Below, one piece after another: positions 3,322 through 34,831 of a stretch of 35,851 nt of DNA. The notes under the pieces were generated by a model. That model was given only the letters and a program-made list of their open reading frames with translations. It made no database searches and was not told the origin of the DNA. Each line of letters starts with the position of its first letter. Position 1 is the first letter of the stretch. Origin of the DNA: a virus; UHGV virus genome UHGV-0135983, one strand, 5' to 3'. The translations under genes and the position numbers were made by a program.

Positions 3322-4932
3322 CTAATAATCTACGGCGACCATGTGATCGCCATCGTTTGGTTGCCAATGTTCCCGCGCCTGTGCGGTCGGAATCCCGACC
3401 AATTTACCTATACGTACCGGAGTTGAGCTGATAGCACCGGAGCCGGAGTCGATAAAGTCATCGGGCTGATTAGTCAGCGCCGGGTTAAAGTCTCGCATCT
3501 GGTCGTACATTGGGCCGTCGAGCACGTCGGTGTGCGCCCAAAGGAACCGCGACGACAGCGGCGCTTCGAAGGCATCGAGGATGCGTTTCTGTTTATTGGT
3601 CACGCTGAATTCTTCCCGGACGCCGCAACCTGTACCCTTCAACGCCTGAATCAGCAATTTGCCGGCGAAGCTGCCCGGGCCGTTCACCTCGACGCAAATC
3701 AGGGGGATCTGATACTTCAACACCAGCTCTTTAATCTGCATCACCTGACCGCCGGTGATTTTGTCGTTGTCGTCAAATTCTGCCAGTTCGCCCGTAAGCC
3801 CCTGGCAAACATGCCAGTACAGATGCCCGCGCGCGTCGGTGAAAATCAGAGAGAACGCCGAGGCGTCGGCCTTAACTTTGCCGGTGGCCACATCCCACCA
3901 GGCGACAGCACCAACAATTTGCGTCTGGCCAAGCCACATCGAACAGGAGCGGTTCGCGTATCGGATTTCAGGCTGAACGTTGTATTCTCGGATACGGTCA
4001 GGATCAAGACGAACCTCGCCAACCGGTTTACTGTGCAGCTGGTACTGACTGTCCCATTCGTTAATTGTGCGAGTCTCGCGGCGGCGCTTTGTCATTTCCT
4101 CCGGAGTGAATCTTTCCGGCCATTCACAATCGGCGTAACAGTCAACCGTGGTACCGGGAGCCTCGGCAAACTCGATACCATCATCGTTAAGACGATAATC
4201 AACACCTTCAACGAGCAGTCGCGCGCCAATGTGAATACCGACGAAAACATATTCAGGCCGGAACGGTAACGAGTAACGGCTAGCGGTAGCCTGTTTTTCC
4301 TCGATGCGAAATTCTTTGCCGAATAGTTTGATGGTCAGACAGTCGGCGCCCATAGATTCAACCTCATCGTAAAGGCTATCGTGGGTATGCGGCGTGCCGA
4401 TAAACAGCTTTCGCCCGCCGGGGACAAGAATGTGTGTCTGTTCACCCAGACGATAACGCAGCTTTTCCCGCGCCTCCGGCGTCTGGATATTCCGGGGCAC
4501 TTCTACGTCATCGTTCTGACATTCATCGGCACGGGCCGAGGTGACGTTAGAGAGGATCCCCTTTGCGTACATGCTGCCGTTACGCATATCCAGCGAGCCG
4601 TTAACCCACCATTGCTCAACGGTTCCCTGTCCGTCGGGTAGCATACCTTTGGTCAGCGGATGATTGCGTAAAACGTTCTGCGTATCGCGGCTGGTTTTGT
4701 ACGCGGTGCCGTCAGCTTCAGACTGGTGAAGAATGCGGTACTGGCGGTTCTGGTAATATCGCCATGCGTTATACACCGCCAGAATGGTGGATTTTCCGAA
4801 GCCACGGAAACAGCGAAGCACCGCGAGATCCCCGCGGTGTTCCAGCCAGTGGCAGGCTCGATAATGGCAGTCGGGAACCTCCCACCCCATCCGCTCCGCC
4901 CATATGATGAAAAAGGCGACGAATGAAATCAT
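3322..4932 (-). CDS. terminase large subunit (putative)
   Basis: 536 aa; Walker A-like RGFGKSTILA near N-terminus, acidic Walker B-like ADECQNDD; sits between a small putative TerS and the tail fiber. Confidence 0.6.
   Translation of the reverse strand: MISFVAFFIIWAERMGWEVPDCHYRACHWLEHRGDLAVLRCFRGFGKSTILAVYNAWRYYQNRQYRILHQSEADGTAYKTSRDTQNVLRNHPLTKGMLPDGQGTVEQWWVNGSLDMRNGSMYAKGILSNVTSARADECQNDDVEVPRNIQTPEAREKLRYRLGEQTHILVPGGRKLFIGTPHTHDSLYDEVESMGADCLTIKLFGKEFRIEEKQATASRYSLPFRPEYVFVGIHIGARLLVEGVDYRLNDDGIEFAEAPGTTVDCYADCEWPERFTPEEMTKRRRETRTINEWDSQYQLHSKPVGEVRLDPDRIREYNVQPEIRYANRSCSMWLGQTQIVGAVAWWDVATGKVKADASAFSLIFTDARGHLYWHVCQGLTGELAEFDDNDKITGGQVMQIKELVLKYQIPLICVEVNGPGSFAGKLLIQALKGTGCGVREEFSVTNKQKRILDAFEAPLSSRFLWAHTDVLDGPMYDQMRDFNPALTNQPDDFIDSGSGAISSTPVRIGKLVGIPTAQAREHWQPNDGDHMVAVDY
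3385..3402 (-). promoter_or_regulatory. conserved late-junction element copy 2 (GGTCGGAATCCCGACCAA), inside terminase 3' end, upstream of tail fiber
   Basis: Same invariant 11-mer; lies within the last ~27 codons of the upstream CDS, 84 nt before the fiber ATG at 3304. Confidence 0.5.
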
Positions 4933-5270
4933 TTTTTCCGCTGTTGTATGCGTTCGATAACTTCCTGTGCTGCACGTTCAGCGGCAGATACCTGTTGGCC
5001 CAGGCGGAATGCTTCATCGTCCGGATCCTCGCCGGGTTTAGGCGTTCCCCCGCGCGTATGCATGCCAATCAGCGAATGGACTTTTACCAGCAGGGTTAGC
5101 GATGCGGCCGCATTCTTCTTATGCCAGTACCGATCGCCGCGTTCCTGTTTGGTGTGCTTTGTGACTTCCTTCCCTGCCCCCGGCCAGTTATCCGGATCGG
5201 CTTCTTCAAGAACTACATCGGTGAGCTTATCGCTAAGAGCGGTCAGGCGGGTTTTGTAATCTGAATGCAT
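4929..5270 (-). CDS. terminase small subunit (putative, by position)
   Basis: 113 aa, immediately upstream of and overlapping the putative TerL start; no recognisable motif. Confidence 0.35.
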   Translation of the reverse strand: MHSDYKTRLTALSDKLTDVVLEEADPDNWPGAGKEVTKHTKQERGDRYWHKKNAAASLTLLVKVHSLIGMHTRGGTPKPGEDPDDEAFRLGQQVSAAERAAQEVIERIQQRKK

Positions 5271-5317
5271 AAAAAAGCCCCGTGGTTATCCATAGGGCTA
5301 TAATGTGCCGGGCTAGA

Positions 5318-5333
5318 GGTCGGAATCCTGACT
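5318..5333 (-). promoter_or_regulatory. conserved late-junction element copy 3 (GGTCGGAATCCTGACT), upstream of putative TerS
   Basis: Same invariant 11-mer, 45 nt upstream of the ATG at 5270. Confidence 0.5.
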
Positions 5334-5404
5334 ATTGCATATGCAGCGATGTACGTATAAAACTAGCCGACATTAATATAATCATTTTCATTCAGAGGCT
5401 CCCT

Positions 5405-5842
5405 GTGAAAACTTTATTCCCCTTAATACTGTTTATCGTAACTTCTACCGTTTGCGCCAAAGAAGTTAAATATGACTTTCCTCCAGATGGGGAAATGGCA
5501 AAATCACTCAAACCAGAAATTGTTGGCGTGGCTAATTATGAAATGGTCAATAGAAGCGTGCGCTTAAAAGCTTTAGATGTTGGTGAAAAAAATGTTTCTC
5601 TCCTGGTAGTCATAGGTGCTACCGACACCAGAAAACCCGTTACTCAAGCTAACATCCCTGACAAACAATCAATCTCATTAACTAAACAGCAAATTGTGAA
5701 CAAATATTGTGCACCATTCGGGTATGGCAATTGGTACTTTGATGCCTTCAAACAGCGGGGTGTAAAACTGCACTATTACTTTTACTCGGCAGTAGACACC
5801 CCGTTATTTACATTCACGGTAAATAAATCTGATTGCGATTAA
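5405..5842 (+). CDS. secreted hypothetical protein (moron, opposite strand to virion genes)
   Basis: GTG start with AGAGG RBS 7 nt upstream; N-terminal signal peptide VKTLFPLILFIVTSTVCA; AT-rich relative to flanks; TATAAT-like boxes at 5299..5304 and 5377..5382; stop overlaps the convergent internal virion gene stop. Confidence 0.5.
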   Translation: MKTLFPLILFIVTSTVCAKEVKYDFPPDGEMAKSLKPEIVGVANYEMVNRSVRLKALDVGEKNVSLLVVIGATDTRKPVTQANIPDKQSISLTKQQIVNKYCAPFGYGNWYFDAFKQRGVKLHYYFYSAVDTPLFTFTVNKSDCD

Positions 5843-21275: not shown

Positions 21276-21872
21276 TCAGGCGGCATAGCTGAATAATTGC
21301 GAGGCTGCGTTTTCTGCTGCCTGCTGATTGGGGAATGTGCGGAATAAAATAAAATTCCAGAGGACGTCTAATACGGATTTATACAGCTGAGAAAATTCTA
21401 CATCGTCCATTTTTGCGAACGATATGGATTTGGGTTCCTTGCGGGTAGTGCCATCAGGCATCTGGTATTCGGTATAAAAACCGGCTTCGATAGTTACCCA
21501 GGAACGGAACGCTTCAAACGATTTAACCGCACTAATATTTCCGGCGCGTTTTTCTGCTTCATCGCGGAGATACTGATCAGCCAGTTCCTGCAATGTGTCG
21601 GCATGCCCGGCATAGTGGGCCACCAGCTGCACGTAACCACGAACCAGTTTTTTATCGGCTGGCGATATTGCACCGCCGGAAGGTTGCCAGTAATCAAATC
21701 CCAGATTCAGGAGGGCAAAAAATTTGCGGTGGAACGCCGGGTTTCTTGCCTGCTTAAAATCCGCATACAGAATACCGCCCATGCGAACTTTTTTTTCTAA
21801 GAATTCGCGGGCGTCAGGCGTTGCTGGAATTAATACACCGCCAGGTGCTTTTACAAAAGAATACTGCGCCAT
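21276..21872 (-). CDS. hypothetical phage protein (nin-region-like)
   Basis: 198 aa ORF, no motif recognised. Confidence 0.4.
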   Translation of the reverse strand: MAQYSFVKAPGGVLIPATPDAREFLEKKVRMGGILYADFKQARNPAFHRKFFALLNLGFDYWQPSGGAISPADKKLVRGYVQLVAHYAGHADTLQELADQYLRDEAEKRAGNISAVKSFEAFRSWVTIEAGFYTEYQMPDGTTRKEPKSISFAKMDDVEFSQLYKSVLDVLWNFILFRTFPNQQAAENAASQLFSYAA

Positions 21873-22686: not shown

Positions 22687-23520
22687 TCATGCTGCACGCT
22701 CCTGTTTCTGTTGTGCTGCAGGGTTAAGCCAGAGGCATTCAGTACGGACTTTCGTACCGCGCCCGGCACTGATGCGCGATGCTTTCTCGGTCTTCGCCCA
22801 GCCGGATAGCATGTCGTTGTAGACATCAGTGTCGTAACCGCTAATCATCACCATGCCTTTCATCGTTCTGGACACAGCGAGCAATTGCTCATGCCCTTCA
22901 ACGGTCATTTCATGGTTGTAATAACGATTTTTCTGCACTCGTGTTTCCGGCATATATGGCGGATCGATGTAATGCAGCGTCGTTTCTGCGTCGTGGGCGC
23001 GCATTACCGCCAGAGCGTCTTTGTTCTCGATGATGACTCCTTGAAGGCGCTGACAGACAACAGCGAGATTAGCCGGGTAACGCTCCCATAGATGCGCCGC
23101 CGTAGCGTATTTGCGTTTGCTGTCGCTGCGGAAGCCGGATTGACCGCCGATACCTGCGGCAGAGCCGAACCCCATACAGGCACGAACCACCATGCGGCGG
23201 GCGCGTTCGATAGGGTCAGTGGCTGGTTGCTGAGCGTGACAGAACTCATCGCGTGAATACGGGGTCAGGCAACAGGCATCCTGCAGGCGCTGGTTTAATT
23301 CAGGGTCGCGCAATACACGAAACAGGTTCACCACCTCGCCGTCGAGATCGTTGTACACCTCTGAATAGCTACGCGCTTTTTGTAGCAATACGCCAGCAGC
23401 CCCGCCGAACGGTTCGACATAGCAGACGTGTTCCGGCATCTGCTCGATAATCCAGTGTGCCAGTCGGAATTTCCCGCCGTGATATCTGATTACAGGATGC
23501 CTGATTTTTTTTTCAATCAT
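22687..23520 (-). CDS. Dam-type DNA N6-adenine methyltransferase
   Basis: 277 aa; YHGGK, FGGAAGV (AdoMet motif I) and DPPY (motif IV); A9 homopolymer in codons 3-6. Confidence 0.85.
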   Translation of the reverse strand: MIEKKIRHPVIRYHGGKFRLAHWIIEQMPEHVCYVEPFGGAAGVLLQKARSYSEVYNDLDGEVVNLFRVLRDPELNQRLQDACCLTPYSRDEFCHAQQPATDPIERARRMVVRACMGFGSAAGIGGQSGFRSDSKRKYATAAHLWERYPANLAVVCQRLQGVIIENKDALAVMRAHDAETTLHYIDPPYMPETRVQKNRYYNHEMTVEGHEQLLAVSRTMKGMVMISGYDTDVYNDMLSGWAKTEKASRISAGRGTKVRTECLWLNPAAQQKQERAA

Positions 23521-23699: not shown

Positions 23700-24290
23700 C
23701 TATGCTACCTCCCCGATATATTCTGCAATGCCCGGCAGCAGCGCCACCGCTGGCGATTCACACTGGTTGCCCCACACGTCGAAACCATGCGACGACTGGC
23801 GGGCGAATAACTCAATACGCGGTACATCGCCCAGCAGCTGCACCAGCTTTTCGCGCACGATATCCGGTTTGCGCGAATGCTCCAGACGCGGGGCCGTGAA
23901 TGACTGAACGATCCCGGCATCCAGCCGGGCGGGTAATTTCCCCTGCACAGCGAAAAGGCAATCTTCACTGTTCGCCCTGGTCATATGGCCCATTCCTATG
24001 GCCAGTTTGTCGGTCTGCCGGCTGTAGCATTTGTTCCACGTAAAGCCTTTCATGGTCATCAGGCGGAAGCCCCACGCCTCGACTACTCGCAACGCCTCCA
24101 GCGGCTGAGTCGGTACCCACCACATAGCCAGCAGGCAGTTTTCAGCGGCCAGTTCCCAGACCGGAAGACGGCAGATATCGAGCACAGTCATGGTCTGGTA
24201 TTTATGCCCGACGCCACGCTCGCCATCTTTGGCTTTATCGCGGTACGTCCAGGGCGGATCGCAATAAATTAAAGTGTATTTTTCATTCAT
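23700..24290 (-). CDS. MT-A70-family DNA N6-adenine methyltransferase
   Basis: 196 aa; IYCDPPW catalytic motif; start overlaps upstream stop as TAATG. Confidence 0.8.
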   Translation of the reverse strand: MNEKYTLIYCDPPWTYRDKAKDGERGVGHKYQTMTVLDICRLPVWELAAENCLLAMWWVPTQPLEALRVVEAWGFRLMTMKGFTWNKCYSRQTDKLAIGMGHMTRANSEDCLFAVQGKLPARLDAGIVQSFTAPRLEHSRKPDIVREKLVQLLGDVPRIELFARQSSHGFDVWGNQCESPAVALLPGIAEYIGEVA

Positions 24291-29064: not shown

Positions 29065-29262
29065 TTATGCTTTAGACGTGTTTTGCTCTTCGTAAAAAGT
29101 AGGGTCGTATTTCAAGGCGCCTGCAGTTACATGCTCAAGTCGCGCAGCTCGCTTTTCAGGAACAACAGCACCCCAGCGGGTTACAGCGACTTGAGAGATA
29201 CCTAATGCACGCGCAACAGCGGTTTTAGTTCCAAAAAATCTGATAACAGTTTCGGTCTTCAT
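29065..29262 (-). CDS. Cro/YdaS-like HTH regulator
   Basis: 65 aa; HTH AVARALGISQVAVTRW; AGGAG RBS; divergent from repressor gene. Confidence 0.7.
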   Translation of the reverse strand: MKTETVIRFFGTKTAVARALGISQVAVTRWGAVVPEKRAARLEHVTAGALKYDPTFYEEQNTSKA

Positions 29263-29330: not shown

Positions 29331-29744
29331 ATGGACATGAAAAAATTGACCTTTAACGATCGCATTACATCGAGACGGAAAGAGCTTGGCTTAACCCAAC
29401 AGCAGCTCGCCGATGCCGTTGGCATATCTGGCGTAAGCGTCTACAAGTGGGAAGCAGGTATTAACACCCCAAAAGGGCAAAATCTGTTTTCTCTCGCTGA
29501 GGCTCTTCGTTGCTCTCCGACATGGTTACTTAACGGAACCGATAGCGATGAACCGTTGAAGGCGGAAGACCTTTTACCTCGGTTAGATGATCGCCAAAAG
29601 CTATTGCTTGATCTTTTTGACTCCCTACCTGAATCAGAAAAAGATAGACACATCAATGAGTTGAAAGATAAAGTTGACGGATTCCAGCGATTGTTTGATG
29701 AGTTACTTTTGGTAAAAAAGAAAAAAAACACTCCAAAAAAATAA
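29331..29744 (+). CDS. CI/RacR-like repressor (HTH_XRE, no S24 peptidase domain)
   Basis: 137 aa; HTH LGLTQQQLADAVGISGVSVYKWEAG; possibly leaderless from the ATG at 29337. Confidence 0.75.
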   Translation: MDMKKLTFNDRITSRRKELGLTQQQLADAVGISGVSVYKWEAGINTPKGQNLFSLAEALRCSPTWLLNGTDSDEPLKAEDLLPRLDDRQKLLLDLFDSLPESEKDRHINELKDKVDGFQRLFDELLLVKKKKNTPKK

Positions 29745-29750
29745 ATTAAA

Positions 29751-29780
29751 GGCAATGTTTTCAATGCATTGCCTTTTTTT
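29751..29780 (+). terminator. intrinsic terminator after repressor gene
   Basis: GGCAATG...CATTGCC hairpin followed by TTTTTTT. Confidence 0.6.
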
Positions 29781-29793
29781 ACACCTCAAATAT

Positions 29794-29844
29794 TAACTTT
29801 TGTTAGTAAAAAATATTGCCAATAAAAATACCTTTGGTTATGCT
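29794..29844 (+). promoter_or_regulatory. operator-like palindrome plus sigma70-like promoter
   Basis: TAACTTTTGTTA (29794..29805) matches the TAAC-N4-GTTA pattern; TTGCCA (29816..29821), 17-nt spacer, TATGCT (29839..29844). Confidence 0.45.
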
Positions 29845-29926
29845 TCATCACATCAACGACGCACTAACCACGCGGCAGTTGTTCAGAAACGTTCCGCCGA
29901 CCCGGCGTTAAGGGGGAGGAGAAGTG

Positions 29927-30145
29927 ATGGAAAACGCTGTATTAGGTGCCGTCGGACCAACGCTGAATGTGTTGCTGGATGCACTGAAAGAAGAGAAAGG
30001 AGCCGCCAACGTCGAGGACGTCAAAGCGGTCATCCAGGTTATCAGTGAAGTTGTAGGCAAGTGCGATGGTGATCTGGCTACTGGTTACGCGGTTTGGGAT
30101 GAACTGCTGAATGCGGTGTTACGACATATTTCGACAAAGGGTTAA
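29927..30145 (+). CDS. hypothetical small acidic protein
   Basis: 72 aa; GGGGGAGGA RBS 6 nt upstream of ATG. Confidence 0.5.
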   Translation: MENAVLGAVGPTLNVLLDALKEEKGAANVEDVKAVIQVISEVVGKCDGDLATGYAVWDELLNAVLRHISTKG

Positions 30146-30320
30146 GGCTAATACCCTCTGGTGGGTATAACTCTCGATTGATTCTCACGACTGCTGACAT
30201 GAAATCTACACGGTTATCAATCGGCATCGTAGACAAAATTACTGTCAATAATACCTGGTGTGCTTTCAGCTCTTCTCTGACTGCAGCTAGCTCAGATTTA
30301 AGTTGTTCAAGTTCCGACAT
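30078..30320 (-). CDS. hypothetical small protein (antisense/convergent to 29927..30145)
   Basis: 81 aa from MSELEQLKSELAAVREEL, AAGGGA RBS; 3' end overlaps the + strand gene by 68 nt; uncertain which is expressed. Confidence 0.35.
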   Translation of the reverse strand: MSELEQLKSELAAVREELKAHQVLLTVILSTMPIDNRVDFMSAVVRINRELYPPEGISLNPLSKYVVTPHSAVHPKPRNQ

Positions 30321-30426
30321 TTGTAATCCCTTTTGCTGTTGTTGGAATGGCAAAGGTAGCACGACCGGGCGTGTTGAAAAATCCCGGAACTGAATTCTTC
30401 GGGTCGCCGACAGTACGATGACATGC

Positions 30427-30769
30427 GGGAAAGACCGCAACGAACATCCATTGCTGTGTGTAGTCTTGGCCGGGCGCCCCGGGCATTTTTTTAACACAGT
30501 AACGATTTATGCGACCCTTCAGTGAAAACTGAAGCCCTCGAAAAGAGGGACCCCGTGAGGAAAGACCAGTGAGCCTGACCAGCTCTGGCGCCGGGAAAGA
30601 CCGGGAGGAAAGACCAATGACCTACGGGCATGACCAGCCCTGACAGCCGGGAAAGACCGGCAACCTTTAGATGGCAAAAGGCCCGCACAAGGCGGGCCAG
30701 TTACCCCGAACGGTGACCAAACCATTCGGACTTATCACAAGCGACCAAGCTTGTGATGAGGAAAGACCA
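30427..30769 (+). repeat. cluster of six GGAAAGACC motifs in apparently non-coding DNA
   Basis: GAGGAAAGACCA at 30557, 30605, 30758 (each followed by GTG/ATG and a short in-frame ORF); GGGAAAGACC at 30427, 30593, 30649; 22-bp inverted repeat TCACAAGC-N6-GCTTGTGA at 30735..30756. Confidence 0.6.
30463..30490 (+). terminator. putative intrinsic terminator
   Basis: GC-rich hairpin CCGGGCGCCCCGGG followed by T7 run. Confidence 0.5.
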
Positions 30770-30824
30770 ATGCCGACAGAGTCAACACTGATCGGCTCTG
30801 AGTATACATCAACAAGGAGTCGCT

Positions 30825-31148
30825 ATGGAAGCGCTTACCATCCCCGTGAAGCTGTACATTCACTACATCACCAACACTTTCTCATCCGATAAATATCACG
30901 TTTCAATCTGTGACATGTCACGGAACCACCCGGACATTTATGTGCTGCTGGAAACGCGTGATATCACCATCGATATAAACCAGCCGGAACCCTTCGACCT
31001 TATAGCCTTGCAGGTTGACCAGCTGCGCAGCCAGAAAGAAAACCTTGCTGCCGACGCTCAACGCCAGATCGCCGCGGTCGATGACAAAATTCAGCAGCTG
31101 CTTTGCATCGATCATTCTCAGATTGAAGAAAGTGATATTCCCTTCTGA
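30825..31148 (+). CDS. hypothetical protein (first gene of recombination operon)
   Basis: 107 aa; AAGGAG RBS 6 nt upstream. Confidence 0.5.
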   Translation: MEALTIPVKLYIHYITNTFSSDKYHVSICDMSRNHPDIYVLLETRDITIDINQPEPFDLIALQVDQLRSQKENLAADAQRQIAAVDDKIQQLLCIDHSQIEESDIPF

Positions 31149-31155
31149 GGCGCTT

Positions 31156-31401
31156 ATGAAGAAAAATCCAGTTATCGAAAAAGTTATGGCTTCCGGCCTG
31201 TCTGTATTCGAGCATGAAAATAATAGCGACTTTGGTTCAGGAACTATGCATATCACTATTATCGGTGGTGTCCGACGCGTCGAATTCTATCCAACGACAG
31301 GCACAGTCTATGCCAATGCCGAGAAGGGAAAGTTTCCTGCATTCCGACAGAAAAAAGCCGGTATCGAAGTTGCAATCCGTCTCGCTAAATCCGGCGCCTG
31401 A
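31156..31401 (+). CDS. hypothetical small protein
   Basis: 81 aa from MKKNPVIEKV; GAGG RBS; longer ORF from 31015 overlaps upstream gene. Confidence 0.45.
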   Translation: MKKNPVIEKVMASGLSVFEHENNSDFGSGTMHITIIGGVRRVEFYPTTGTVYANAEKGKFPAFRQKKAGIEVAIRLAKSGA

Positions 31402-31430
31402 CCTGCGCCAGTAACTAAGAGGAAAGACCA

Positions 31431-33650
31431 ATGACCATCTACAACGGCTTATTTGAGCCAAAGAAATCGGCGATTAAAGACTGCGGCGCCGTGCAGCTGG
31501 CGATCGCCATCGATGCGCCAAACAAAAAAGTGGCCGAAAGCATTATGACCGGCAAACTCTGGGAATCATACCCGGCCAATGGTGACAACTATTTCAAACC
31601 GAAACTGTGGGAACACGTTGAAGGCCAGCCGCTGCCGACCGTTGGCCAGTTCGATGAGTCATTCGCCCAGCAGCATACTTTTGACGGTGAAAAATGGGTT
31701 TCTACTGCGCAGGATAGCGCTTCCGGAAGCAGTGCAGGTTTACCTGCCGACGATGAAGTGATCGACCTGATGACCGTTTCCGCAGAGGAACGCTTTGCTG
31801 CCGTCCTGCTTTTTAGCACCGCTGCGATTGATGGCCATCTTTATTCTCAGGTTGTGGATTATCTGGATAACCTGAAAAACCACGATGGCGAATTTGAAGA
31901 GGAAGATCGCTTTAACTTTAATGTGCTGTGCGCCCTACAAAATAACTTCCCGGTTCAAAGCATGCATGTGGAAGGTCTGAATAACCTTGTTCAGGGGATT
32001 TTCTCCCACTTTGAAAACCAGACGCCAGGCAAAGCGGCTATCTCTCAGTTCGTTAAACGCTGGCTTGAGAATCCGGGCAAGCGCGACGAACTGGCCCCCG
32101 GCGTATATAAAAATACCGCTCTCAGCACCAGCACCAGCACCAGCACCGATGATAAAACACCCGTGGTAATTTCTAAGCGGGGTTATAAACACACATATGC
32201 AACGCTGGATCAGGAGATCGCTACCGCCCTTCTCCCGCTGGCGCCTGATGCGCCGGTACTATCCGGAAACCTTCTGGACGCTAAGAAGATGATTGCCGAT
32301 GACCGGGAAGATTTTAAACGCTGGTCTGCATCGCTGCACACCACTCCGCAGATACTCAAATATGACCGCGCCAGCATCTTCGGTGTAGTGCAGAACGTAC
32401 CGGCGAAAGATACCTACCATTTCCCTGACAGCCTGCGCCGCCATATCGATTCATGGCTGGAGGCCAACGGCCGCTTTGAAGAAACCGATACAGGATCCGT
32501 TAAACAGACAGAGGCAACGCAAAATATCGCCTCAAACGTGGGCGAAAAAGCGGAAGTGCCGCAGACGGTTGTAACCGATAACCAAGCGAAACAGGCGCGT
32601 GAGGCGCTCAACGATATGGGCTATGGCGTATATGCATCTGGTGAAGGTGCGGAACCGGAAGATAAGTTAAGCGTTAAGGCTGAGAAAATAGCAGATGAAG
32701 CTGCTCGTTTGTCTCGTGATATTAACCTCAAAGATCGCATGCCAGATGCCGGAGATTTGATTCCAGCAATTCAACCAAATGAAAATATAGCCTCAAAAAA
32801 AATTGAATCATATCTATCTGAATTGAATGACGACCAGGCCAAAGCAAACCTTAGCGTCTGGAATCGCGTCCAGCGCACAGATCCGGCCTTCGTCGAAAAG
32901 AACAGTTTCGGCGCAGGGCTTCACTCAATCCGGGCGCAGTACATGCTGATGCGCGCAACGGAAGTTCTCGGAATGGAAGGAACCGGTTGGGGCGTTGATA
33001 TCAAAGAAGAGCGCATAGATCGAGGTGTGCCGCTTATGGAGCCAATACAGGACCAATCAGGAAAAATAATTGGCCAGAAACCGGTAAGGGACGGGGATGG
33101 CTCATTATTCTGTTTATCCGTACATACAATTCGGATTGAACTCTGGTACCTGCGAGACGGAAAGAAGGGGCGCATTCCGGCCTATGGACATACGGATTAC
33201 ATCACCAAGGGTGGTGATGGTGCATTAAAAATGGAGAAAGAAGCCGCCAAAAAATCACTGACTGACGCTACAACCAAAGCACTATCCCATCTCGGATTTG
33301 GTGCAGACGTGTACATGAACATGCATAACGACAACGAATACACTTCAAAATTGAATGAGATATTCGAAATCAAAAAAGCCAGCGAAAGCATAGAAGATAT
33401 AGTGCGACTTCGTCAGGAATTAGACGACGATCTTACCTCCGTTGCTGAAACCCTATCTACTGGCGTGACTGTTAACGAAGTTGAAAAGGTTTTTGGCACG
33501 ATAGCCCGAAAACTCGAAGTTCACCGCAAGGATGCAGAATCAAAAGGCGATACACAGCGCTCTCGGTACCTCAGTGGCCGGTTGCGCCGCCTGACTGAAA
33601 TCAAAAATGGACGTCTCGCCGAACTAAATAAATCCGAGGAGAAAGCATAA
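31431..33650 (+). CDS. Erf-family single-strand annealing protein with ~480-aa N-terminal extension
   Basis: 739 aa; C-terminal region has Erf-like blocks NSFGAGLHSIRAQYM and KALSHLGFGADVY (cf. P22 Erf NSFGKYKYR / LNGLFGIDD); start preceded by GAGGAAAGACCA; (AGCACC)x4 encodes an STSTSTST linker. Confidence 0.6.
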   Translation: MTIYNGLFEPKKSAIKDCGAVQLAIAIDAPNKKVAESIMTGKLWESYPANGDNYFKPKLWEHVEGQPLPTVGQFDESFAQQHTFDGEKWVSTAQDSASGSSAGLPADDEVIDLMTVSAEERFAAVLLFSTAAIDGHLYSQVVDYLDNLKNHDGEFEEEDRFNFNVLCALQNNFPVQSMHVEGLNNLVQGIFSHFENQTPGKAAISQFVKRWLENPGKRDELAPGVYKNTALSTSTSTSTDDKTPVVISKRGYKHTYATLDQEIATALLPLAPDAPVLSGNLLDAKKMIADDREDFKRWSASLHTTPQILKYDRASIFGVVQNVPAKDTYHFPDSLRRHIDSWLEANGRFEETDTGSVKQTEATQNIASNVGEKAEVPQTVVTDNQAKQAREALNDMGYGVYASGEGAEPEDKLSVKAEKIADEAARLSRDINLKDRMPDAGDLIPAIQPNENIASKKIESYLSELNDDQAKANLSVWNRVQRTDPAFVEKNSFGAGLHSIRAQYMLMRATEVLGMEGTGWGVDIKEERIDRGVPLMEPIQDQSGKIIGQKPVRDGDGSLFCLSVHTIRIELWYLRDGKKGRIPAYGHTDYITKGGDGALKMEKEAAKKSLTDATTKALSHLGFGADVYMNMHNDNEYTSKLNEIFEIKKASESIEDIVRLRQELDDDLTSVAETLSTGVTVNEVEKVFGTIARKLEVHRKDAESKGDTQRSRYLSGRLRRLTEIKNGRLAELNKSEEKA

Positions 33651-34210
33651 TGACTTCCACTACTGCTATTGCCATCGCCGCGGACTATCAGAACCTGCTG
33701 CAACTGCTGGAAAGCTCTGATGACCTGACTCCGGAAATGATCGCCGATACCCTCGAAGGCATGGAAGGAGAGCTAGCCGATAAACTGGATTCCATCATGG
33801 TTATCGCACGTAATAACCTCGGCAATGCCAGCACCTGCGATGATGAAATAAAACGCTTGGCCGAACGTAAGAAGTTCTTTGAGAATAAGGATAAGGCTCT
33901 GCGTAAGTATATTCTCTCCTGCCTGATGGCGGCCGGGCTGGATAAGCTGAAAACGGCAAAAAACACTTTCACTGCTCGCAAAGGTAGCGTAAGCGTTGTG
34001 ATTGATAATACCGATCTTCTTCCCGATGAACTGGTGACTACCCAGGTTGTTATCGCGCCCGATAAAAAGGCCATCAAGGAAGCGATTGAATCAGCACAGG
34101 CAGCAGCGGCCCAGATTACCGCTGACGGCGGAGAGATACCGGAAGAACTGTTAAACCCAGTGCCGGGCGCTCACCTTGAGATTGGCGAACGTTCATTACA
34201 GGTGCGCTGA
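33650..34210 (+). CDS. Gam-like / Sipho_Gp157-like protein (putative host-nuclease inhibitor)
   Basis: 186 aa; helical N-terminus, central LKTAKNTFTARKGSVSVVID resembles Mu Gam-type pattern; start overlaps Erf-like stop. Confidence 0.45.
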   Translation: MTSTTAIAIAADYQNLLQLLESSDDLTPEMIADTLEGMEGELADKLDSIMVIARNNLGNASTCDDEIKRLAERKKFFENKDKALRKYILSCLMAAGLDKLKTAKNTFTARKGSVSVVIDNTDLLPDELVTTQVVIAPDKKAIKEAIESAQAAAAQITADGGEIPEELLNPVPGAHLEIGERSLQVR

Positions 34211-34211
34211 T

Positions 34212-34397
34212 ATGCTCAAAATCACCCTGAAGCGAGGGGATGCCATTCACGTTATTTTTCCTGATGGCACCAAAGGTAAGATCGAAGCCTGCGCACGTTG
34301 CGAGTTTGACTTTAATTTTCCCTATAGCGTGAAAATCACCAGAGAAAATGGCGCGCTACGGAATAAACCAAACCTGATTAAGCCTAATCAGAAATAA
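34212..34397 (+). CDS. hypothetical small protein
   Basis: 61 aa from MLKITLKRGD. Confidence 0.4.
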   Translation: MLKITLKRGDAIHVIFPDGTKGKIEACARCEFDFNFPYSVKITRENGALRNKPNLIKPNQK

Positions 34398-34446
34398 AAA
34401 CCAACCATCGCTAGCATAGCTGCCCCTTTTGAAAACGGAGAACGCT

Positions 34447-34641
34447 ATGCTGCGATGGCAACCGGGAGCTGTATTGCTCTCAGATTTCGATATCAAGATT
34501 GGCCGGTTATCCGCCAGCGTACGAAAGAAGACCCTGACCAGGACTGAAATCGAACGCGCATGCGAAGAAGCTGATAACGCGATCGCCGGCATGATGAGGA
34601 AAGACCATGGTCAGAAAAAACGACCTTCTCACCGACGCTGA
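34447..34641 (+). CDS. hypothetical small basic protein
   Basis: 64 aa from MLRWQPGAV; ACGGAG RBS; overlaps next gene start. Confidence 0.3.
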   Translation: MLRWQPGAVLLSDFDIKIGRLSASVRKKTLTRTEIERACEEADNAIAGMMRKDHGQKKRPSHRR

Positions 34642-34831
34642 GATGATTGAATTTACAGGTTGTAAACAACCAATCAAACAAAAAGAGGTTCTAGATCGTG
34701 GAGGTGTCTCATACATACAGGATAGAGAGGGGCGCCCTATGGTTACCTGGACGCATATTAATGCAGTTCTGAATGGACAAATAACCATCCAATTAGGCAG
34801 CGAAGAAAAACCAAATTTTGAGGCGATATAG
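34607..34831 (+). CDS. DUF4224-like small protein immediately upstream of integrase (putative excisionase)
   Basis: 74 aa; LLTDAEMIEFTGCKQPIKQKEVLDRGG pattern; start preceded by GAGGAAAGACC. Confidence 0.5.
   Translation: MVRKNDLLTDAEMIEFTGCKQPIKQKEVLDRGGVSYIQDREGRPMVTWTHINAVLNGQITIQLGSEEKPNFEAI

Follow-up and report, generated by a model that had tools for sequence, protein, structure and literature searches.

The N-terminal region of RecE (~560 amino acids, or aa) has no known function, yet it boosts linear-linear recombination; the nuclease domain of RecE suffices for recombination by itself, and the N-terminal region only enhances the linear-linear reaction (PMC11611040). In the Red-beta/RecT systems, the C-terminal domains of the annealases bind the exonuclease partner and single-stranded DNA-binding protein (PMC11611040). 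Another annealase, Erf, is grouped with Rad52 and Sak3 in one structural superfamily (PMC2896510, PMC8093625). In phages of Firmicutes, the slot beside erf that is filled by homologs of Mu Gam can also be filled by Gp157 genes, which suggests that Gp157 and Mu Gam have analogous functions (PMC8093625). Rec modules without a nuclease are common: of 246 enterobacterial lambdoid phages that have a Rec module, 84 lack a nuclease gene. DnaQ-like nucleases were noted in lambdoid Rec modules, along with the suggestion of "shuffling of partner interaction domains" (PMC12315714). Here, we describe a gene from virus genome UHGV-0135983 (35,851 nucleotides; "the window" is this entire stretch). Its product, a protein of 739 aa, joins a RecE/YdfE-type N-terminal scaffold to a Rad52-like annealing domain. 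It is probably the annealase of a recombination module that includes a Gp157 protein and has no nuclease of its own.

We found no published description of this fusion in the literature on YdfE, on the RecE N-terminal domain, or on Gp157 with Rad52. The family itself is already in the databases (phrog_2489, and PF27430 for the N-terminus), where the labels given to it are "exonuclease", "exonuclease VIII", or "hypothetical". A prophage annealase as such is unsurprising; what stands out is that the RecE N-terminus is a portable scaffold, common to annealases and to two types of nuclease.

The predicted C-terminal annealing domain

The C-terminal part of the protein has many relatives that occur on their own. 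Residues ~470-700 are ~35% identical to standalone phage proteins of ~240 aa from Pseudomonas phages (F116, PMG1, H66, LKA5, and others), from many Vibrio phages, and from phages of Xanthomonas, Acinetobacter, Sulfitobacter, and Pelagibacter. The annotations of these relatives vary ("exonuclease", "DNA repair protein", or "RAD52-like annealing protein"), and a precomputed Pfam domain is absent from every one that we found. We aligned 25 relatives with aa 455-739 of the 739-aa protein (alignment A1, 26 members). The alignment has an invariant block, KKSLTDAxxKALSxLGFGxD, and shows that the 739-aa protein has an extra β-hairpin, at aa ~535-560, relative to the standalone homologs.

Given this alignment, AlphaFold2 (AF2) predicts a helix, long β-hairpins, a crossing helix, and then a helical tail, with a predicted local distance difference test (pLDDT) score of 78.8. 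The model contains the β-β-β-α core fold of the N-terminal domain of Rad52. We used Foldseek to compare the model to predicted viral structures (BFVD). The best named match was a "DNA repair protein" (4.8e-9), followed by Rad52 (1.6e-7), RAD52-like (7.8e-6), SAK3 (1.5e-5), and Rad52/59/22 (2.1e-5). Models named Erf (2.3e-4, 2.1e-3, and 6.9e-3) or RecT (1e-2) were weaker matches. Based on the predicted structure, the domain is a Rad52-fold annealase that is nearer to the Rad52/Rad22-type proteins than to Erf, within a single structural superfamily.

At the level of sequence, four members of the alignment have weak matches to Rad52_Rad22, all on the invariant helix (best E = 0.0049), while SSAP_RAD52 (PF06378) is not listed among the members' matches. 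We also used hhalign to compare A1 with residues 1-211 of human RAD52 (we checked this sequence against 1kn0, E = 7e-143). The two aligned over 130 columns (RAD52 residues 45-176) with 25% identity, E = 0.008, and a probability of 5%; EKEAAKKSLTDATTKALSHLG is one side of a paired 20-letter stretch in this alignment. A search of PDB sequences with the full protein and with the C-terminal profile gave nothing useful (the matches were to an L-galactose dehydrogenase, E = 0.13, and to a designed binder, E = 2.8). As judged by these profile searches, the annealing domain falls under the thresholds of every curated family tested.

The annealing core is the sole basic segment of the protein, with an isoelectric point (pI) of 8.0; the other segments are acidic, except for the 24-aa linker L2. 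The fold and the basic core suggest that this domain would bind single-stranded DNA (ssDNA), oligomerize, and anneal strands. By analogy with the Red-beta/RecT systems, the helical tail that follows may be a region that interacts with partners. The core has no Pfam family, and it could also serve as a new recombineering reagent for Klebsiella and Salmonella.

The N-terminal scaffold and its fusions

Profile matches indicate that the N-terminal region is a RecE/YdfE-type scaffold and not an orphan. The NCBIfam model for ExoVIII (NF007259) aligns to aa 50-389 via model positions 54-396 of 877 (E = 9e-14). The score is 50.5 bits, far below the equivalog cutoff of 1269. Two PHROGs that are annotated as "exonuclease", phrog_607 and phrog_2082, match aa ~164-406, and "ExoVIII" proteins from E. 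coli lambdoid phages match aa 45-390 at ~28% identity. Homologs of 57-99% identity carry the YdfE_N label (PF27430), as a precomputed label on those homologs and not as a scan of the query. The ExoVIII match and the YdfE_N label both point to a RecE-type N-terminal region. An earlier reading of this DNA, from the letters and the translations only (the sequence-only reading), saw no motif in these ~480 residues; the matches to NF007259 and phrog_607 and the label on the homologs correct this. Analysis of this region by profiles and structure prediction, as it proposed, revealed the RecE/YdfE homology and three globular domains.

The three domains (D1 to D3, Table 1) come from an AF2 model that was built from a 28-sequence alignment (A3) and has a pLDDT of 81.4 and a predicted template modeling score of 0.37. 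Disordered linkers at aa 94-101, 229-243, and 355-378 separate them. D3 is the best-conserved block that is common to RecE-type proteins, and the most distant relatives match at aa ~230-390. Structure comparison did not reveal a catalytic fold in any of the scaffold domains. The only invariant residue in A3 is an alanine, and no acidic or histidine residues of the N-terminal domains are conserved in it. D1, linker L1, and D2 are acidic (pI 4.1-5.2). Within L3, the motif AxQAREALNxMGYGVYA is predicted to be helical and is confined, in A3, to the proteins with the annealase fusion. This helix (aa 386-403) may serve the annealase domain as a docking or autoregulatory element.

To survey the fusions of the scaffold, we ran an exhaustive phmmer search with the N-terminal region against 1.84 billion representatives, which gave 142 clusters, and we examined the C-termini of the 80 representatives that are 480 aa or longer. 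According to hmmsearch with A1, 24 of the 80 have a Rad52-like C-terminus. A Pfam scan of the other 56 assigned the PDDEXK-like DUF3799 to 12, an Rv2179c-like DEDD 3'-5' exonuclease to 11, and RecT to one. "Exonuc_VIII" (PF06630) was found in 29 of the 56, but this family covers the extreme N-terminus and not the nuclease; the catalytic domains are C-terminal. A seed-based classification of the same 80 gave 24 Rad52-like, 14 PDDEXK, and 11 DEDD proteins, with 31 left without a class. We prefer this classification because single-linkage clustering of the C-terminal tails merged all of them, bridged by truncated proteins.

Most of the classless representatives (27/31) share one C-terminal region that has no Pfam family (e.g., "...LTYQQQLTIAALHGLCANP..."). 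These proteins are 500-760 aa long and include P0205, P0206, P0211, P0218, P0219, P0234, and P0258. They may be the "RecE-2" proteins without a nuclease domain that were described previously (PMC12315714). The natural fusions, to an annealase, to two unrelated types of nuclease, and to this unclassified domain, imply that the scaffold works independently of nuclease chemistry. They also offer clean constructs for finding out what the RecE N-terminus binds.

The Qin-like Escherichia phage PhiR42_1 encodes an 823-aa "exodeoxyribonuclease VIII" in the same operon slot (positions 3366..5837 of locus L014), and no annealase is annotated beside it. Another protein of the same length, P0198, consists of YdfE_N and a DEDD (Rv2179c-like) 3'-5' exonuclease, not a PD-(D/E)XK nuclease. 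If the PhiR42_1 protein is of the DEDD class, to which we assign it by its length alone, then its ExoVIII name is probably wrong.

The annealase core itself seems to be exchanged among relatives. Three Klebsiella proteins (P0018, P0019, and P0024) are 96-100% identical to the 739-aa protein up to about aa 400, but their annealase cores are only about 40% identical, with values of 16-50%, and their tails are 56-93% identical. In P0019, the last ~40 residues are 88-93% identical. In P0009 and P0016, this pattern is inverted: the N-terminus is 20-88% identical (in 25-aa windows) and the C-terminus is 92-100% identical. A diverged core between near-identical flanks, together with the reverse pattern, implies that the core behaves as an internal swappable cassette. 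In sliding comparisons of identity, the upstream breakpoint lies in L3, at aa ~400-425, and the other lies near the end of the tail. The mosaic span is 32700..33560 (aa ~425-700), with L015 and L016 as the loci compared. The downstream Gp157 protein is 99% identical in the P0019 locus and 85% identical in the P0009 locus, so it does not co-vary with the annealase allele (99% vs. 41%, and 85% vs. 96-100%); such co-variation would have hinted that the two proteins interact physically. The replacement of the cassette points either to selection for diverse annealases or to plain shuffling mediated by the linkers.

This pattern could be turned around. The scaffold might be the main functional part, as an anti-defence factor, an inhibitor of RecBCD, or a DNA mimic, with the annealase as interchangeable cargo; the primary role of the protein would then be host manipulation. 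The acidity of the scaffold fits this view, as does its near-identity in proteins whose annealase core was swapped, and so do the ~27 representatives, perhaps RecE-2 proteins, that combine the scaffold with a C-terminus that has no recognizable enzymatic domain. On the other hand, the scaffold has no similarity in fold or sequence to known inhibitors, and its recognizable fusion partners are always DNA-processing modules. Also, the nuclease domain of RecE can support recombination by itself, as noted above, and the N-terminus is just an enhancer. We consider host manipulation unlikely to be the primary role.

Erf, exonuclease, and the reading frame

The C-terminal domain is better explained as a Rad52-like annealase than by what the sequence-only reading proposed, an annealing protein of the Erf family that is extended at its N-terminus. 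That reading had the architecture right: a C-terminal annealing domain does sit behind a large N-terminal extension, in a recombination module with Gp157. The "Erf-like blocks" that it saw at residues ~480 to 640 do coincide with a single-strand-annealing domain (aa ~473-649), but not with Erf, as there was no match to Erf. Specifically, the Pfam family for ERF (PF04404) matched neither the full protein (at E ≤ 0.1) nor any of the 26 members of A1 (at E ≤ 10). Comparing A1 to P22 Erf with hhalign gave a probability of 0.13% over 21 columns. We also built an Erf profile from six members, from P22, Vibrio, Gordonia, Bacteroides, Lactococcus, and Streptococcus (A4), and A1 aligned to it with a probability of 0.07% over 12 columns. 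Neither comparison recovered the conserved Erf blocks (KxQYNSFGKYxYRSxEDI ... KKGMDxAQxTGATSSYARKY), and the invariant Erf residues (K20, Y29, R32, E35, D36 ... GATSSYARKY) have no counterpart in A1. In favor of Erf, it shares a structural superfamily with Rad52 and Sak3, Erf-named models are among the Foldseek matches, and Gp157 genes are typical neighbors of erf in phages of Firmicutes (PMC8093625). However, models named for Rad52 or Sak3 outrank the Erf models. Overall, we think it is very unlikely that this is an Erf-family protein.

Even less probable, in our view, is that the protein is an exonuclease akin to ExoVIII/RecE, as the annotations in PHROGs and RefSeq would have it. Both phrog_2489 and phrog_7838 are labelled "exonuclease", gp07 of phage ZF40 is annotated as "exonuclease", and some Klebsiella homologs are annotated as "exonuclease family protein" or "Exodeoxyribonuclease VIII". 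The homology of the N-terminus to RecE is genuine. But the similarity to RecE is restricted to a non-nuclease region of the ExoVIII model, with the low score given above. Furthermore, the 739-aa protein lacks PDDEXK/DUF3799 (PF12684), DEDD, or any other nuclease domain from Pfam, while true RecE-type relatives show them. Its C-terminus has the predicted Rad52 fold instead, and its N-terminal domains have neither a catalytic fold nor conserved acidic or histidine residues. The evidence thus points to an annealase without a nuclease domain, in which case the labels on a protein that is very common in enterobacterial prophages would be wrong.

The 739-aa open reading frame (ORF) is genuine. It matches phrog_2489 across its full length (E = 4e-284). 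In a word-indexed search, the protein matched 1,118 protein clusters at E ≤ 1e-3, and the best 120 of these are all ~700-750 aa with 100% coverage of the query; most come from Klebsiella and Raoultella, with a few from E. coli. A search with the N-terminal profile added homologs from Salmonella (757 aa) and Enterobacter (730-737 aa). A single Salmonella sequence (P0405) is present in 884 index blocks. Homologs from the Stenotrophomonas phages BUCT708 and BUCT709 (63% identity) and from Pectobacterium phage ZF40 (35% identity) are full length, and each aligned in one piece with tblastn. Across the full-length homologs, identity ranges from 35% to 99%. Megablast against E. coli genomes found only partial matches, to the N-terminal part.

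The repeat inside the ORF does not disturb this picture. The sequence-only reading correctly described an (ST)4 linker that is encoded by a hexanucleotide repeat, and the run lies inside a predicted disordered linker. The longest ST run varies in length across 233 full-length homologs, at 0, 2, 3, 4, or 5 units. Because the repeat unit is 6 nucleotides, slippage in copy number stays in frame. There is next to no chance that an error of sequencing or assembly fused two genes near this repeat (the sequence-only reading raised a frameshift around 32100..32200), even with a hexanucleotide repeat in mid-ORF and a protein built of separable modules: a change in copy number would keep the frame, more than 1,000 independent clusters as well as the isolated phages ZF40 and BUCT708/709 have this full-length architecture, and both linkers are in frame across homologs in A3.

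The operon, its proposed function, and known systems

The fusion gene lies in the early-left operon of a lambdoid prophage (Table 1). Loci from Salmonella, Enterobacter, Klebsiella, and ZF40 share a conserved order of genes: cI comes first, then one or two small ORFs, the fusion gene, an overlapping Gp157 gene, an ORF of ~60 aa, xis, and int. The ATG of the Gp157 gene overlaps the TAA stop codon of the fusion gene as TAATG, and the two genes appear to be translationally coupled. The sequence-only reading called this neighbor "Gam/Gp157-like"; the Gp157 half of the name is borne out by Pfam. The gene also matches phrog_253, "Mu Gam-like end protection" (E = 2.9e-50), and had no meaningful match among PDB sequences.

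Table 1. Features of the fusion gene and of its surroundings in the window (positions are those of the window; A3 is the scaffold alignment)
Feature	Positions	Strand	Residues	Basis or remarks
NinB/Orf homologous-recombination mediator	21276..21872	-		phrog_319, E = 1e-71; early-right region
DNA methyltransferase gene, nin-like region	22687..23520	-		phrog_56 / phrog_359 pair
DNA methyltransferase gene, nin-like region	23700..24290	-		phrog_56 / phrog_359 pair
P22-Cro-like gene	29065..29262	-
cI-like helix-turn-helix repressor gene	29331..29744	+
107-aa ORF	30825..31148	+		phrog_2479 (function-unknown family)
~84-aa ORF, from internal Met of 128-aa ORF	31147..31401	+		phrog_36277 (function-unknown family)
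Shine-Dalgarno-like AAGAGGAAA	31417..31425	+		precedes ATG at 31431; read from sequence
739-aa ORF, RecE/YdfE-type scaffold and Rad52-like annealing domain	31431..33650	+	1-739	ORF list, phrog_2489, homologs
Scaffold domain D1, small alpha/beta ferredoxin-like fold	31431..31709	+	1-93
Scaffold domain D2, helical	31758..32105	+	110-225	AF2 pLDDT ~83-96; conserved block in A3
Linker L2, disordered, houses ST repeat		+	226-249	pLDDT <50 at aa 229-243
Repeat (CAGCAC)x4.2	32123..32147	+	232-239	Tandem Repeats Finder; encodes STSTSTST, within L2
Scaffold domain D3, helical	32178..32480	+	250-350	AF2 pLDDT 82-97
Linker L3, acidic (pI 4.4), mostly disordered	32481..32846	+	351-472	pLDDT profile, A3, sliding identity
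Helix motif AKQAREALNDMGYGVYAS, in L3	32586..32639	+	386-403	conserved (A3)
Predicted Rad52-fold single-strand annealing core	32847..33377	+	473-649	includes EKEAAKKSLTDATTKALSHLGFGADVY
Invariant helix EKEAAKKSLTDATTKALSHLGFGADVY, in annealing core	33234..33314	+	602-628
C-terminal helical tail	33378..33647	+	650-739	AF2 helices at fragment positions 181-284
Sipho_Gp157 gene	33650..34210	+		PF05565, E = 2.7e-36, 125.5 bits vs. cutoff 28.6
DUF4224 excisionase	34607..34831
Integrase gene	from 34832

No dedicated exonuclease was found next to the annealase, where a two-component SynExo/EATR module would have one. Specifically, none of the six ORFs neighboring the fusion gene, from 30825 to 34831, matches a nuclease family in PHROGs or Pfam. 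The syntenic loci have no precomputed nuclease label from Pfam, and no nuclease is annotated in ZF40. An operon without its own nuclease implies that the module would rely on host nucleases or on ssDNA generated by replication. The window does encode NinB/Orf, in the early-right region, so besides the early-left module the prophage has a further function in recombination.

The two small ORFs immediately upstream of the fusion gene could belong to the recombination module. In the loci from Salmonella, Enterobacter, and Klebsiella, this position is likewise taken by ORFs of about this size, and the 107-aa ORF has 52% identity to its counterpart in L016. The interval from the cI-like gene to the first of these conserved ORFs (29745..30825, ~1.1 kb) contains only short ORFs, on both strands. 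The ORFs that we tested in this interval had no family match, including a 73-aa ORF (29924..30145) without a PHROG.

We propose that the core and its helical tail would oligomerize on ssDNA and pair complementary strands in the manner of Rad52, Mgm101, Sak, Erf, and Red-beta. The ssDNA would be supplied by host nucleases or by replication, as in the P22-type modules that combine an annealase with an anti-RecBCD function and no nuclease. The co-translated Gp157 protein, which is possibly Gam-like and end-protecting, might modulate the processing of the ends. The scaffold would stay outside of the chemistry, as a generic adaptor or tether that could bring its cargo to a partner or site shared by all of the fusions; examples might be DNA ends, some host protein, or another DNA molecule. 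We suggest an adaptor because the scaffold is attached elsewhere to 5'-3' nucleases, 3'-5' nucleases, or RecT, as well as to the annealase, and thus accompanies either half of the exonuclease/annealase pair.

We believe that the first part of this proposal, a Rad52-like annealase in a nuclease-less module with Gp157, is probably correct. We have much less confidence in any specific role for the scaffold. In its strongest form, the scaffold would be a universal and exchangeable "recombination adaptor" that tethers whatever DNA-processing module it carries to one common target, perhaps a DNA end, a protein of host repair or replication, or another DNA molecule; this is a tentative idea, and somewhat doubtful.

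Several observations count against the annealase proposal. The sequence similarity to Rad52 is below significance, both by hhalign and in Pfam, where the protein scores 13.0 bits (E = 0.099) against Rad52_Rad22 (PF04098), whose cutoff is 20.3. The main basis for the assignment is therefore a structural model whose confidence is moderate. We did not find biochemical data for any member of this annealase family, and PHROGs and RefSeq call the 739-aa family an exonuclease. Pfam's Phage_Mu_Gam is not among the matches of the Gp157 protein, so the "Gam" half of the sequence-only reading's name was not upheld, and a Gam-like role comes from an annotation label only. Also, the prophage may use an unrecognized nuclease, either among the small ORFs or elsewhere in the genome.

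If the scaffold is such a universal adaptor, then its fusion to an annealase would explain the role of the RecE N-terminus, independent of nuclease chemistry. A single polypeptide and Gp157 would be enough for phage recombination, via recruited host nucleases. And surveys whose annealase profiles fail to detect this family would miss the lambdoid prophages that carry it, and would undercount the prophages that are proficient at recombination.

How does this locus compare with known systems? The closest named structural relatives of the annealing core are the Rad52/Rad22-type proteins, including the N-terminal domain of human RAD52, yeast Mgm101, phage Rad52-like proteins, and Sak/Sak3. Unlike them, the 739-aa protein falls below the thresholds for Rad52_Rad22 and SSAP_RAD52, has the extra hairpin, and has a 470-aa RecE-type scaffold in front.

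P22 Erf, with Abc1 and Abc2, is similar in organization: a Rad52-superfamily annealase and an accessory protein, with no phage nuclease, in an early-left operon (PMC12315714). However, there is no detectable sequence relationship to Erf, the accessory protein is Gp157 instead of Abc, and Erf has 205 aa rather than 739.

YdfE from the Qin prophage and the 823-aa "ExoVIII" of PhiR42_1 have the same YdfE_N scaffold (PF27430) at the same operon position. Representatives of the YdfE/Qin-like class end in a DEDD Rv2179c-like 3'-5' exonuclease (PhiR42_1 is placed in this class by length only).

Finally, RecE/ExoVIII of the Rac-type prophages has a homologous N-terminal region (D1 to D3) and sits in the same early-left slot, next to xis-int. 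Where RecE has its C-terminal PD-(D/E)XK nuclease, the 739-aa protein has the putative annealase, and its partner gene encodes Gp157 instead of RecT.

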